From sequence record OR352948.1: a stretch of DNA of 64,000 nucleotides; one strand, given 5' to 3'. The position numbers and the translations under genes were made by a program. Numbering within the stretch: the stretch's first letter is position 1; each line of letters opens with the position of its first letter. Under the pieces are notes generated by a model. It had not been told where the DNA came from, did not search any database, and saw only the letters and a program-made list of their open reading frames with translations. Below are positions 23,959 to 41,869 of this stretch, piece by piece. The stretch is from Escherichia phage AV118.

Positions 23959-24003
23959 TGTTTTGATAGGACTACTATAACATAGTCCTATCAAGATGTA
24001 AAC
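23959..24003 (-). promoter_or_regulatory. Promoter/stem-loop cassette
   Basis: gataggact-actataacat-agtcctatc, a 9-bp inverted repeat with TGtTATAGT in the loop on the minus strand; GTTTAC 17 nt upstream. Confidence 0.45.
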
Positions 24004-33885: not shown

Positions 33886-34191
33886 TTATTTTCCTCGGCA
33901 TTCTTTAATGAAATTTTCTAGATTGGTAGATTCAATAGCTTTTTTACGAGCTTCTGCATGTTCTTCTTCGGACAATTTACATTTATAATTGACCCAGACA
34001 TTATGGTCGAAACTAGTCGTGGCATATAATAACAATGCTCCAACGAATAGCAAAAACGGTGATAAGAATACAAAACCAGGAACACCATCCATACTGTAAG
34101 CCTTTTGTAATACTGCAACAGAAAGAGCTGCGTAAAAAGGTGATGCAAATATTGTTAAAAGACCAATTCGGTTGGTTTCGCCTAATTTCAT
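33886..34191 (-). CDS. Membrane protein
   Basis: 101 aa with two hydrophobic helices; SD gaggag. Confidence 0.45.
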   Translation of the reverse strand: MKLGETNRIGLLTIFASPFYAALSVAVLQKAYSMDGVPGFVFLSPFLLFVGALLLYATTSFDHNVWVNYKCKLSEEEHAEARKKAIESTNLENFIKECRGK

Positions 34192-34204
34192 AATATTCTC
34201 CTCA

Positions 34205-34249
34205 TGTTTTAATAGGACTACTATAACATAATCCTATAATTATGTAAAC
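34205..34249 (-). promoter_or_regulatory. Promoter/stem-loop cassette
   Basis: aataggactactataacataatcctat...gtaaac. Confidence 0.4.
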
Positions 34250-34261
34250 AGTTTTGCGAAA

Positions 34262-35218
34262 TTATTTGAAAGGTTTTACCATATGAAAATTTTCTTTAAA
34301 CCGTTTGATGTAATCATTTTTGCCGAGCTTATGATACATAGCCACTACTTCATAATAGTTCTCGTATGCGTACTCACGGAACCAACCGGAGGTGATGCTT
34401 GTGCAGACTTTTTCTAATGCCATCATGAAACTGGCTTCAGGGTTAATTTTAAAGTCATTAGGAATTTGAGAACGTTCTAATGCTAGTACACATGATTCTT
34501 CATATACACCAGCCAGTTTAATCATTTCGGGTAACGATTCGAACTTCTCGCGTGAGGTCATGACTTCAGAACCGTCTTTCATATAAAATGTATACGCTGG
34601 ACGGTCTGTTAGTGCAATGGCTTCATGAATAGTATCATGGTCATATGTATAGATGTCATCTTTAAAGAACGCACTTTTAGAAGTGTCAAGAACTGGGTGA
34701 GCATAGTTCAAGGTTTCTTTCTGGCGTTTCAGCATAATTTCAGTAAGTTCATCGTTCAGTGTAACACCTTTACCACGAAGATACTGAATATGGTTCATAG
34801 TCTTTAAAAAGAATGGATTATTTTTCTTGAAACGATGAGACATCTTAATTGCAAGACCTATCTCAGGAGTTGCCCAGTAAAACCCGTTCAAACGGTCTTT
34901 AGTCAAATTTTTCTTGGCGTATTTTAAAAGGTCATAAGAAGACGTGAAATCTTCAGGAGTGAGTTCACCGACTAATTCACGGACATTAGTGATTGCCGGA
35001 ACAATATATGCTTCAAAATGAGTTTCGCGTCCATTATGGAAGCATTTGAAAACTTGGACATCAGGGTTATCTTGGTGAACATATACACCCATCATTTGAT
35101 TTTTGAATGCATTCCAAGAACCTTGGTCCGCAATAAAGTCCCAATCACTATTTTTGATAGCGCTAGAATCAATAAGACCGTGATAGTGAAGTGCACGAGA
35201 ACCAATAACTAACATCAT
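34262..35218 (-). CDS. Hypothetical protein, possible nucleotidyltransferase-like N-terminus
   Basis: GSRALHYHG...SDWDF loosely fits a GS...DxD signature; weak. Confidence 0.4.
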   Translation of the reverse strand: MMLVIGSRALHYHGLIDSSAIKNSDWDFIADQGSWNAFKNQMMGVYVHQDNPDVQVFKCFHNGRETHFEAYIVPAITNVRELVGELTPEDFTSSYDLLKYAKKNLTKDRLNGFYWATPEIGLAIKMSHRFKKNNPFFLKTMNHIQYLRGKGVTLNDELTEIMLKRQKETLNYAHPVLDTSKSAFFKDDIYTYDHDTIHEAIALTDRPAYTFYMKDGSEVMTSREKFESLPEMIKLAGVYEESCVLALERSQIPNDFKINPEASFMMALEKVCTSITSGWFREYAYENYYEVVAMYHKLGKNDYIKRFKENFHMVKPFK

Positions 35219-35243
35219 AATAATTTCCTCGAATTTAGATTAC

Positions 35244-35483
35244 TTAAATTTCGCGACATGCGATATCATATTCATCCCAGAGGTCATCATGTGAAGCCTC
35301 TACCAATGGAACGATTGTACCGTTTATGTCTTCATTATAAGGGCAAATTGTACAGTGCGCATCTTCGAATCGGATGCCTTTGTGTTCAGATTTTTTATAA
35401 CGCATATCGAATATCTTTGCAAACTTTTCACGAGTAATGGTTTTAGCAACCACTTTGGTTCCAATACTTTCATAATAAATCAT
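35244..35483 (-). CDS. Hypothetical protein
   Basis: Start MIYYESIG with SD ggag. Confidence 0.4.
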   Translation of the reverse strand: MIYYESIGTKVVAKTITREKFAKIFDMRYKKSEHKGIRFEDAHCTICPYNEDINGTIVPLVEASHDDLWDEYDIACREI

Positions 35484-35494
35484 CGTGGACTCCA

Positions 35495-35541
35495 TTTAAT
35501 TTGATAGGACTACTATAACATAGCCCTATCTTGTTGTAAAC
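35495..35541 (-). promoter_or_regulatory. Promoter/stem-loop cassette
   Basis: ttgataggactactataacatagccctatc...gtaaac. Confidence 0.4.
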
Positions 35542-35545
35542 TGTT

Positions 35546-35743
35546 TTAGCAAGAATAACTAGATGATACCCAGCCTTGAACAGTGATACTATTGTGGGAT
35601 AATGAGATCGCGTCCTGGAGATTCAGACCTGCGTTATCTTCAATCCATAATGTAACTTCTTCGCGTTCTTCTGTTGCAATTTGGAACAGGTTTTCCAGGG
35701 CAGCTACTGCCGTACGTACAGCACAATCTAATTCACGAGACAT
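35546..35743 (-). CDS. Small protein, paralog 1 of 3 (C-terminal GWVSSSxxC family)
   Basis: 65 aa ending ...TVQGWVSSSYSC. Confidence 0.5.
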   Translation of the reverse strand: MSRELDCAVRTAVAALENLFQIATEEREEVTLWIEDNAGLNLQDAISLSHNSITVQGWVSSSYSC

Positions 35744-35752
35744 ATCGTTTCC

Positions 35753-36025
35753 TTAGCAAGTGTGAGAAGATGCGACCCAACCACCAGTTTCGAGGCTCAG
35801 GTTGTAGTCGTATTGGTAAACGTCAGCCCATTCAGCATAGCCGTTTTTTGTACAACGTTCAAGATCGGCTTTAAGATGTCCGGGTGAATGATAGGTTCCA
35901 CCCATACCATAAGCTGGGTACAAGTCGAATGTTGTGTTTTGTTTATCAGCAATTTCTTTGGCAGCCTCAATAGCTGCATAGATTTTTGCTACAGCTTCAG
36001 CCAGTTCGGTTTGTTCTTTAGACAT
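35753..36025 (-). CDS. Small protein, paralog 2 of 3 (C-terminal GWVSSSxxC family)
   Basis: 90 aa ending ...LETGGWVASSHTC; junction to the next gene is tgcTAAGGAAnnnnnATG. Confidence 0.5.
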   Translation of the reverse strand: MSKEQTELAEAVAKIYAAIEAAKEIADKQNTTFDLYPAYGMGGTYHSPGHLKADLERCTKNGYAEWADVYQYDYNLSLETGGWVASSHTC

Positions 36026-36034
36026 AATGATTCC

Positions 36035-36340
36035 TTAGCACAACGCAGAAGACGAAACCCAAGCACCTTCAGTAATAACGTAACCATTACCTTCACGCTT
36101 AACATCGCCACCGTTATTTTCAATTTCATTTTTCATCCACTGGGATACGATTTCACCCTTAGGATAATAAGTACGACCGCTACCATAATCACCTACAGAA
36201 AATGATACGGCATATTGGTCTGCGATCTTTGTTGCTTCTTCTTCGATACGTTCAGATTGATTCAGAAGTTTATAAATTGCATCTGAAGCAGATTTGGCAT
36301 CATTAAACTCTGGTACTTTAATTTCAATAATCTTACTCAT
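36035..36340 (-). CDS. Small protein, paralog 3 of 3 (C-terminal GWVSSSxxC family)
   Basis: 101 aa ending ...ITEGAWVSSSALC. Confidence 0.5.
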   Translation of the reverse strand: MSKIIEIKVPEFNDAKSASDAIYKLLNQSERIEEEATKIADQYAVSFSVGDYGSGRTYYPKGEIVSQWMKNEIENNGGDVKREGNGYVITEGAWVSSSALC

Positions 36341-36696
36341 TTTCTACATTCCTTAATAAAGTTTTCGATTGTTTCATTTTCACGTCTAGCTAGGAGTTCA
36401 TTATAACTAATCATTTGAGAAGCGTAAATCTTTTTATTTTTCTTGTTATGGTAAATAAAGTCATAGTAAAAATAGACTACAGTACAAAATGATGCGATGG
36501 ATGCAAAGGCTTGGGTATACCGTAAGTCCTGCCATTGGTCTGTGAATCCGCCAGTGTTCCCTATAAATCCTAACACAACGCCGTCAATAAGAAATCCAAC
36601 TAATCCAAAGGCAAATCCCATGCCAATACTCATAATAAAAATTAGAATGTTCTCACCAAGAGAAGGCCATACGGTTAAGAGTTGAGGCTTTTGCAT
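36337..36696 (-). CDS. Membrane protein
   Basis: 119 aa with hydrophobic helices; SD aaggaaa. Confidence 0.45.
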   Translation of the reverse strand: MQKPQLLTVWPSLGENILIFIMSIGMGFAFGLVGFLIDGVVLGFIGNTGGFTDQWQDLRYTQAFASIASFCTVVYFYYDFIYHNKKNKKIYASQMISYNELLARRENETIENFIKECRK

Positions 36697-37037
36697 CTTA
36701 TTTCCTTAACGAATTCCATAGCTTCTTCATATTCATACTTTTTAACAACTTCATCATACTGAGCTTGGGCTTTTGCGCACTGAACTTTCCATTCACGAAC
36801 TCGAGCTCTGTGATGACGGCCTTGGTACCAATATCCCACTCAGTTAATAGGCATTAATAAAAATGGCACAATAAACGACCCGGCTATAATAAGTAAAAAC
36901 ACTGCATCAGACGATATAACTTTATTGGAATCTAAAATAGCTCCTATAATCATAAAGATTAAAAATGCTAAAGCTAAAATAGGGCCAAATAATACTTCGT
37001 TTGGGATTAATTTACGTTTGTATTCGTATGCCCAGGC

Positions 37038-37639
37038 TTAATTGGCATGTACAGGGTTGGCTTTGACATATTCTCTACATTCCATAATAAATTGCTCAAG
37101 GATTAAATTGTTAGTGAAATTAGGACTAACAACCATAGTTTCATAAAGCGCATCAATAGCACTTAAAGCATCAACTCTTTTAAGCAAAGGCTTGCCTTCA
37201 TACATAGTTTCAGAATCGACGATTAAAGTGAAGTAGTATTTTTTATTATCGACTAGAACTTCTGTATCGATATAAAACATATTAGACCTCAGAAGCTTAT
37301 CTCTAAAACCATAATAATCTTTAGAGCGTTCGCTGATATATTCCCATTCAGTGTTTAAACAACAAACAGACCATGTAGGAGCAACGAAATCGGTGAATCT
37401 AATATCATGGTCTGCAACTAGTTTAGCAATAGCTCCGATATCATGAATCATAATACCTGGGGCTAATAAAGATTTTCTGCTATGGCTAGCCGTTTTCTCA
37501 GTAGTCTCATAAGAAGACGACCAGTACCATTTACGTCCAGTTGCAACATATCGTAATGAATCAACTAAAGACGTAGGTGGATTTACCTTATCTCGGAACT
37601 CTTCGAACATTGAGTCAATATCATTATTTTGGTTTCGCA
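37038..37639 (-). CDS. Hypothetical protein
   Basis: About 200 aa from MRNQNN with SD aaggag; no recognisable motif. Confidence 0.45.
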
Positions 37640-37661
37640 TGTTAACTCCTTTATTATCCAA

Positions 37662-40289: not shown

Positions 40290-40366
<77 letters not shown>

Positions 40367-40466: not shown

Positions 40467-40541
40467 TGGTGGCCCTGGCTGGTTTCGATCCAGCTACCTA
40501 TCAGTTATGAGCTGACAGCTCTCCCATTGAGCTACAGGGCC
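40467..40541 (-). tRNA. tRNA with CAT anticodon (Ile-lysidine or Met)
   Basis: Hand-folded cloverleaf: acceptor ggccctg/cagggcc, D-arm gctc-aatggga-gagc, anticodon stem gtcag/ctgat with loop ctCATaa, T-arm gctgg-atcgaaa-ccagc, encoded CCA. Confidence 0.7.
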
Positions 40542-41495: not shown

Positions 41496-41541
41496 TTGTT
41501 TTGATAGGACTACTATAACATATCCCTATAGGCTTGTATAC
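41496..41541 (-). promoter_or_regulatory. Promoter/stem-loop cassette
   Basis: ttgttttgataggactactataacatatccctat... Confidence 0.4.
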
Positions 41542-41823: not shown

Positions 41824-41869
41824 TTGTTTTGATAGGACTACTATAACATAGTCCTATCGTGTTGTAAAT
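41824..41869 (-). promoter_or_regulatory. Promoter/stem-loop cassette
   Basis: gataggacta-ctataaca-tagtcctatc, a 10-bp inverted repeat. Confidence 0.45.

Follow-up and report, generated by a model that had tools for sequence, protein, structure and literature searches.

Small acidic phage proteins with a strict C-terminal tail and their linkage to a predicted nucleotidyltransferase gene in Escherichia phage AV118

T4-like phages are among the best-studied viruses, and about half of their early genes are without known function. In the 64,000-nucleotide stretch of Escherichia phage AV118 (sequence record OR352948.1) analysed here, which is called the window throughout, three adjacent small open reading frames (ORFs) of the minus strand, at positions 35546-36340, encode proteins of 65, 90 and 101 amino acids (aa) that all end in the same short tail, W-V-[S/A]-S-S-x-x-C; why should three neighbouring genes share the last residues of their products, and what could such a tail be for? 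The most informative feature of the locus is a conserved linkage: the array lies upstream of a gene of the same strand (34262-35218) that encodes a 318-aa predicted nucleotidyltransferase (NTase). As judged from sequence comparisons, this linkage points to a conserved two-part phage module, composed of the small proteins and of an NTase carrying the domains DUF7277 and DUF7275.

The three genes, their family and the common tail

The region is 98% identical to that of Mosigvirus genomes (RB69-type T4-like phages, e.g., vB_Eco_F27 and APCEc01), and in annotated relatives the three ORFs are entered as "hypothetical proteins", RB69ORF136c to 139c. The array occupies a site in the variable early region between the lysozyme gene e and e.6, with e.3 upstream and an 83-aa ORF followed by RB69ORF134c downstream. 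Paralogue A (101 aa, 36035-36340, the RB69ORF139c orthologue) ends in AWVSSSALC (...ITEGAWVSSSALC), its tail WVSSSALC being encoded at 36038-36061; paralogue B (90 aa, 35753-36025) ends in GWVASSHTC (...LETGGWVASSHTC; tail WVASSHTC at 35756-35779), and paralogue C (65 aa, 35546-35743, the RB69ORF136c orthologue, phrog_4882) in GWVSSSYSC (...TVQGWVSSSYSC; tail WVSSSYSC at 35549-35572), all three on the minus strand. The common tail described in the original prediction, made from the letters of the window, is thus confirmed. When all six frames of the window are scanned, W-V-[S/A]-S-S-x-x-C followed by a stop is seen on these three ORFs only; the restriction of the tail to three adjacent ORFs in 64 kb excludes chance. 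The start of paralogue A overlaps the stop of e.3 (ATGA), and a promoter-like site, TTTACG-17-TATAAT (10/12; 36400-36428, minus strand), lies inside e.3, upstream of the array; the record of one relative has a T4 middle promoter in e.3. The three ORFs are real genes, with a predicted expression in the early or middle period.

Both junctions of the array have the form TGC-TAA-GGAA-N5-ATG, the one between A and B (TGC TAA GGAA tcatt ATG, 36023-36040, minus strand) having its Shine-Dalgarno (SD) sequence in overlap with the stop codon, an arrangement of translational coupling, and the one between B and C reading TGC TAA GGAA acgat ATG (35741-35758, minus strand). The uniformity of the junctions, pointed out originally, therefore stands, but not their value as a special signal: the minus strand of the window has eight sites of the form TAAGGA-N4-9-ATG, and the junctions accordingly represent the ordinary stop/SD coupling of T4-type phages, and their only specific part is TGC, the Cys codon.

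The three proteins had been thought to carry unrelated N-terminal bodies on a fixed tail, a description that had to be abandoned. Indeed, phrog_899 is matched by the 90-aa protein (E 3.5e-19) as well as by the 101-aa protein (E 3.4e-22), and a hidden Markov model (HMM) of the family, built from a 146-row alignment with the window's own three sequences among the rows, matches the 101-aa protein (E 3.5e-23) and the 90-aa protein (E 1.1e-23) over their whole length, and the 65-aa protein at E 0.002 only. The aligned paralogues have in common an N-terminal helix (..A-x-x-I-A-D/E..), a hairpin bearing a second motif, Y-G-[M/S]-G-[G/R]-T-Y, and the tail; the Gly-rich loop of the hairpin reads YGSGRTYYP in A (36161-36187) and YGMGGTYHS in B (35885-35911), both on the minus strand, and is gone from the 65-aa protein, a degenerate or reduced member in which N-terminal helix and tail are retained. 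On these alignments, the three ORFs are diverged whole-length paralogues, i.e., putative ancient tandem copies (types A, B and C), and the order A > B > C is kept in enterobacterial T4-like phages. In RB69 itself (P0002, RB69ORF139c, 71 aa) and in one metagenomic contig (P0005, 64 aa), the 101-aa paralogue is frameshifted and has lost the tail, so that at least this copy is dispensable in some genomes. At the nucleotide level, the whole genes are pairwise about 45-55% identical (143-181 matches over 280-332 aligned positions) and the tails 63-73%, with Ser codons that differ synonymously (TCT/TCG/TCA/AGT); this divergence, together with the synonymous codons, implies that conservation acts on the protein.

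A six-sequence profile, run against 1.84 billion cluster representatives, retrieved 146 proteins of 64-143 aa at E < 1e-3, nearly all of them aligned through to the last residue; a word-indexed search with the 101-aa protein alone gave 6 matches, and tblastn placed the 101-aa protein in 397 phage records, including phages of Escherichia, Shigella, Klebsiella, Enterobacter, Serratia, Citrobacter, Yersinia, Edwardsiella and Aeromonas. In the 146-sequence alignment, W83 and S86 are invariant, and conservation reaches 90% or more at A26, Y39, G40, G42, Y45, S87 and C90; the conservation of the tail at the protein level, on which the original prediction depended, is thus borne out by homologues, and the tail is the most conserved element of the family. 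Among the 148 sequences inspected (the 146 profile matches and two from the first search), the exact end W-x-[S/A/P]-S-S-x-x-C is found in 131, and 9 more have one extra residue; the median isoelectric point (pI) is 4.55, and in half of the members the terminal Cys is the sole Cys. Loop and tail are joined by a linker of 2-58 residues, in which D, E, G, S and Y abound and whose median net charge is -4; within this acidic linker, the tail motif recurs: W-x-S-S-x-C is present in the linkers of 10 of the 148 members (shuffle mean 0.2, maximum 2) and W-x-[SAP]-S in those of 31 (shuffles 2.1 +/- 1.6). This recurrence suggests that the tail behaves as a short self-contained functional motif, and not merely as a structural strand.

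An AlphaFold2 (AF2) model of the 90-aa protein, computed with the family alignment, reaches a predicted local distance difference test (pLDDT) of 91 and a predicted template modelling score (pTM) of 0.78; it contains helices at 3-29, 48-60 and 64-73, strands at 32-35, 43-46 and 81-85, the last including the Trp, and a helical C-terminal turn at 86-89. The modelled fold starts with a long amphipathic helix at the N-terminus, continues with a beta-hairpin that has the Gly-rich loop (YG[M/S]GGTYYP) at its tip and with a variable acidic linker, and closes with a last strand and its turn; it is predicted to be novel. No solved relative was recovered by a sequence search of the PDB with the family profile, whose matches were all noise, such as designed helical bundles; the three proteins and the 146 members were also scanned against Pfam, NCBIfam, PADLOC and PHROG and matched unannotated PHROGs alone and no Pfam, NCBIfam or PADLOC model, and a family-profile search of 5.8 billion proteins gave no informative domain fusion, its 83 matches all being short stand-alone "hypothetical" proteins. 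In some members (L070 3461-3985, L087 2583-3062, P0124, P0143 and P0145), the helix-loop-tail unit is preceded by about 60-100 additional N-terminal residues, and such extensions probably explain the length of phrog_899, 221 positions. The family is one of small acidic cytoplasmic proteins restricted to phages. As anticipated, it does not correspond to a named T4 family: HMM, regular-expression and phmmer searches of T4 positions 1-80,000 and 120,001-168,903 (129 kb, the late-gene block at 80-120 kb lying outside the scan) found no member of the small-protein family, nor any homologue of the 318-aa protein, and in T4, e.2 directly abuts e.3.

The partner enzyme and the conservation of the linkage

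The 318-aa protein (34262-35218, minus strand; the RB69ORF134c orthologue) belongs to phrog_2141 and carries DUF7277 and DUF7275; the window genes are clear members of phrog_899, phrog_4882 and phrog_2141/DUF7277+DUF7275 (E 1e-19 to 1e-148). The enzyme is present in 733 GenBank phage records, and among its 2,131 homologue clusters one alone has a functional name ("prohead assembly scaffold protein", an apparent mis-annotation); in two Acinetobacter phage records, a homologue has been independently annotated as "putative nucleotidyltransferase". The residues G6-S7, D25-x-D27 and E69 are invariant in 42 homologues and constitute the hG[GS]...D-h-D...E signature of NTases of the pol-beta superfamily, while the C-domain holds a further invariant set (K125, H128, K139, T140, R165, E168, Y172, H174, H194, D195, H198, E240, E241, C243, E248, R249, K270, C272 and S274-R281). 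In the AF2 model (pLDDT 92, pTM 0.86), the NTase fold is bi-lobed and its second domain helical. A PDB search by sequence gave no relative, and in Pfam only DUF7277 and DUF7275 are significant; there is no match to AbiEii/DUF1814, and other NTase-type matches (DUF6036 and Polbeta) are faint (E 0.045-0.1), each being seen in a single one of 42 members. In MenT toxins, a phosphoacceptor Ser/Thr precedes the first Asp by two residues (T39 in MenT1, S78 in MenT3; PMC11375011); no conserved Ser/Thr occupies this site here, positions 23 and 24 being variable in the 42 homologues. The catalytic set of the MenT type comprises D-x-D and a Lys plus an acidic residue in the second lobe (D41, K137 and D152 in MenT1), to be compared with the invariant G6, S7, D25, D27, E69, K125 and D195. 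The protein is thus a predicted NTase of the MenT/AbiEii structural class, with an intact catalytic motif.

The linkage was seen from both sides. Thirteen IMG/VR loci, on contigs that included some of 355-390 kb, were fetched by a degenerate DNA pattern for YGMGGTYYP, and in all 10 that extend far enough, a homologue of the 318-aa ORF lies downstream on the same strand (phmmer E 3e-11 to 4e-75). In the reverse direction, 80 IMG/VR loci were picked solely because they encode a protein related to the 318-aa one (39-95% identity); in 71 of them, one or more family ORFs (HMM E <= 0.01) lie within 4 kb of the enzyme gene, and the family matches of the 80 loci, 148 in number, are without exception on the strand of the enzyme and, save two, upstream of it. 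The same arrangement surrounds homologues from a 366-kb ENA contig and from a Tara marine contig, and phages that are not T4-like also have the module, namely, the Pseudomonas Otagovirus PE09, with at least 6 copies, and the E. coli Phapecoctavirus DE16, with 3. In cellular genomes, the module is essentially absent (5 contigs from metagenome-assembled genomes, MAGs, among 185,579 species genomes); the arrangement is the same in 4 of 4 MAG contigs having upstream DNA, and the five module-bearing contigs are probably phage DNA.

The number of small genes varies from locus to locus: among the 80 enzyme loci, 9 have no detectable copy, 21 have one, 29 two, 19 three and 2 six, so that the idea of a diversifying family, whose array expands and contracts between phages, is supported. 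Expanded arrays of at least 6 members (L101, 413-1901 and 3116-3421; L105, 2552-3989 and 5073-5537; L114, i.e., Pseudomonas phage PE09, 533-2988) include shortened tails (..GGWYSSHC, ..WEGSSC), and in both L101 and L105, one family member stands downstream of the enzyme.

The specificity of the linkage rests on a comparison with the other genes that surround the enzyme in the window, for which iterative searches were made in the 50 loci whose enzyme is less than 60% identical. In these distant loci, the small family is kept in 42, while the genes for a membrane 101-aa protein, the 83-aa protein, e.3 and an e.5-like protein are each found in none, and an e.6-like gene in 5; the linkage is thus specific and outlasts all other synteny. 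The 83-aa gene (35244-35495, minus strand; phrog_3723, no assigned function), which stands between array and NTase in the window, is retained in 12 of 30 near loci and in 0 of 50 distant ones; being limited to close relatives, it does not belong to the core of the module. A link of the enzyme to tRNA genes is not supported, since these occur within 4 kb in 4 of 57 loci; the window itself has two minus-strand tRNA genes, Arg(tct) (40290-40366) and Met(cat) (40467-40541), at a distance of about 4 kb upstream from the array. In three distant phages, RNA-repair or phosphoesterase genes, encoding a PNKP-like kinase/phosphatase, an RNA ligase and a metallophosphoesterase, occur within a few kb of the module (L022, 1-499; L112, 1288-1947; L115, 1-277); these neighbours are compatible with an RNA-end function of the enzyme and too sparse to count as evidence.

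Possible relations between the small proteins and the enzyme

The preferred explanation is that the small proteins would be partners or clients of the DUF7277-DUF7275 NTase. Each paralogue would dock on the enzyme via its tail, the one element that all of them keep, with its invariant Trp, two Ser hydroxyls, terminal Cys thiol and free carboxylate; the tail might be offered to the active site or to the C-domain either as an acceptor, by nucleotidylylation of Ser, or as a pseudo-substrate. The tail is assigned this role because it is the sole feature present in every paralogue, must end the protein and is sometimes repeated. One NTase would serve several paralogous clients, whose variable acidic bodies would do different jobs, and this would account for the differences in copy number as well as for the persistence of separate paralogue types. 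A functional partnership between small proteins and NTase is considered fairly probable, while the explanation by a docking tail, taken as a whole, has even chances; an actual covalent modification of the tail is doubtful. Rather unlikely is the most specific version, by which a MenT-like NTase with a His/Cys-rich domain covalently modifies the C-terminal W-x-S-S-S-x-x-C of small acidic effectors; such a modification could be a Ser nucleotidylylation, the addition of a nucleotide-derived group or an activation followed by a Ser-Cys crosslink, and it would switch on, or target, a host-directed effector family that diversifies by tandem duplication.

Action of a pol-beta-type NTase on a defined residue of a partner protein is familiar from GlnD/PII, GlnE/glutamine synthetase, MNT/HEPN and CitX/citrate-lyase acyl carrier protein; most of these enzymes target Tyr, and CitX acts on a Ser in its carrier protein, which is small and acidic. 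The likeness to the DUF7277-DUF7275 NTase is one of description, no homology being demonstrated, and we know of no substrate of GlnD, GlnE, MNT or CitX that has a C-terminal Ser/Cys motif or is encoded in tandem paralogue arrays. The antibiotic nucleotidyltransferases ANT(2'') and LnuA differ in being small-molecule enzymes of about 160-180 aa without a DUF7275 domain and without partner proteins; the ubiquitin-like sulfur carriers ThiS and MoaD have a beta-grasp fold and a C-terminal Gly-Gly, whereas the small proteins are predicted to have a helix and a three-stranded sheet and end in Cys.

Several observations speak against a tail-docking partnership. Four of the 9 apparently empty enzyme loci hold divergent W..SS..C ORFs, which leaves at least 5 of 80 without a detectable family member, and two actinophage homologues of the NTase, matching in the C-terminal domain only, are also without a detectable small partner. 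The gap between array and NTase varies from 1 to about 1600 nt, so that the two are not always adjacent, and in the window they are separated by the 83-aa gene and a promoter/terminator hairpin; no fusion of a small protein with the NTase was found by the profile searches. The NTase is not basic (pI about 6.5), and the tail is folded in the AF2 monomer (strand 81-85, turn 86-89, pLDDT about 83) and could belong to the structural core. Finally, the known protein modifiers with an NTase fold, GlnE, GlnD, DrrA and MNT, act on Tyr, not on Ser.

The outline of an NTase with small partner proteins is also that of the MenAT and AbiEi-AbiEii pairs (PMC10435456, PMC11375011), and the small proteins might accordingly be antitoxin-like neutralisers: the NTase would be a toxic tRNA-end nucleotidyltransferase of the MenT/AbiEii type, used by the phage as a weapon against the host, and the small proteins would restrain it or time its release, mainly via the N-terminal helix, in the manner in which MenA1 acts on MenT1 (PMC10435456, PMC11375011), with the tail as a structural element only. 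This is regarded as improbable. The enzyme is outside AbiEii/DUF1814, has no conserved phosphoacceptor beside D-x-D and carries an additional, highly conserved His/Cys-rich C-domain (DUF7275); the module is confined to phages, not chromosomal, and, unlike a 1:1 antitoxin, it has 1-6 conserved paralogues per enzyme, of types kept across genera, with intervening genes and a promoter/terminator often placed between array and NTase. Moreover, the small proteins have no similarity, by sequence or fold, to known antitoxins of the MenA1, MenA3, AbiEi or YefM-Phd type, their hallmark being the C-terminal W-x-SSS-x-x-C and not a helix alone, and neutralisation would leave the invariant Ser-Ser...Cys-COOH, the fixed position of the stop and the internal repeats of the motif unexplained. 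With a similarly low probability, the small proteins could be independent effectors of the same pathway, i.e., host-takeover or anti-defence proteins acting as acidic nucleic-acid mimics or as small-molecule binders, in which the Gly-rich loop and the Ser-rich tail would hold a ligand, possibly the nucleotide product of the NTase; co-inheritance with the enzyme would then reflect a common process, without modification by the enzyme. The acidity of the proteins and of their linkers, the folded tail of the AF2 model, a Gly-rich loop combined with Ser hydroxyls, which would be a typical phosphate-binding composition, and the tandem copy-variable arrays in a PeSL-bounded, variable e.x region, as is typical of accessory genes (PMC2839356, PMC4122927), are all in keeping with it. 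Neither by sequence nor by fold, however, do the small proteins resemble a known sponge, DNA mimic or anti-defence protein, and by itself this proposal explains neither the required end at Cys nor the linkage to one enzyme down to 39% identity, with the other neighbours lost.

Two further proposals concern the tail itself. If the small proteins were precursors of the kind known from ribosomally synthesized and post-translationally modified peptides (RiPPs), S-x-x-C-COOH would be converted to a C-terminal thioether ring, lanthionine- or aminovinylcysteine (AviCys)-like, after nucleotidylylation of Ser by the NTase and elimination; the i, i+3 spacing of the third Ser and the terminal Cys is also that of the S-x-x-C-COOH ends from which epidermin-type lantibiotics form their ring, several tandem "precursor" genes stand beside one enzyme gene, and internal S-S-G-C repeats occur. 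The proteins are nevertheless folded domains of 65-140 aa with a confidently predicted tail, not leader-core peptides, no export or protease gene is present, a Pfam scan of the flanking ORFs (33886-37661) found no LanB/LanM/LanKC/LanD-type or other RiPP family, and we know of no dehydratase of the NTase type, all of which makes the proposal very improbable. Least likely of all, to the point of being negligible, is an explanation at the DNA level, in which the gene ends are recombination linkers, as the original prediction had also allowed, or remains of a very recent duplication. Direct repeats are indeed detected at the three gene ends, but these repeats are just 63-76% identical, differ by synonymous codons and share TGCTAAGGAA as their longest exact string; the genes as a whole are no closer than stated above, and the motif is kept at the protein level in phages with unrelated DNA. 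This reading was rejected on account of the low DNA identity of the gene ends.

Flanking elements, novelty and biological meaning

Between the array and the next cassette lies a PeSL-like early promoter and hairpin (35504-35541, minus strand; GTTTACA-N5-ATAGG-NN-TATGTTATAGTAGTCCTAT), entered as a terminator in the record of a relative; a second such element (34212-34249, minus strand) closes the cassette composed of the 83-aa gene and the NTase gene, which the two copies bracket exactly. The hairpin has a dG of -16 kcal/mol and a z of -5.2. The window holds five copies on the minus strand (23966-24003, 34212-34249, 35504-35541, 41504-41541 and 41832-41869), with 0 expected by chance; PeSL cassettes have been described for T4-type phages (PMC2839356, PMC4122927), and the elements of the window look like these. 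Further upstream, the e.4 homologue (about 36675-37070, minus strand) is broken by an in-frame stop where relatives have a Trp (..LLMPIN*VGYW.. vs PINW) and, compared with F27 and SA79RD, by a frameshift near its 5' end; it is either a pseudogene or the result of sequencing errors, and the label "sulfurtransferase" given to it in vB_Eco_F27 looks spurious for a small membrane protein. A second C-terminal motif, F-[IV]-K/M-E-C/I-R, is common to otherwise dissimilar, partly membrane, proteins of the neighbourhood, encoded at 33886-34191, 36337-36696 (e.3), about 36675-36839 (e.4) and 37038-37661 (e.5-like), with the endings NFIKECRGK, NFIKECRK, FVKEIRCKSLNS and FIMECREYVK...; it is present in e.3, e.4 and e.5 of T4 too (FVIDCRKIK, FVKESRCKSQS and FVKECREYVK).

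As to novelty, phrog_899, phrog_4882, phrog_2141 and DUF7277+DUF7275 are purely computational clusters labelled "unknown function", and literature searches with RB69 ORF names and accessions, with DUF and PHROG identifiers and on phage NTases returned nothing on the module or on an association of its clusters, in line with the original view of the array as an undescribed module. In its outline, the module resembles the already known pairs of NTase toxin and small antitoxin; it differs from them by its sequence family, by the additional His/Cys-rich domain of the enzyme, by its phage-only range, by its arrays of several paralogues, and by the novel fold and the C-terminal motif of the small proteins.

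Three anonymous ORFs thus become a defined, testable module, in which a widespread, strict-tailed, phage-restricted family is tied genetically to an NTase, and which has been verified in enterobacterial T4-like phages, an Aeromonas phage, Otagovirus, Phapecoctavirus and metagenomic contigs of up to about 390 kb, one of them marine. If the enzyme indeed modifies the small proteins or is controlled by them, the module would add a new case to the nucleotidyl-transfer biology that phages encode, and could bear on host shut-off, on tRNA-targeting defence and counter-defence, and on the chemistry of protein tagging.

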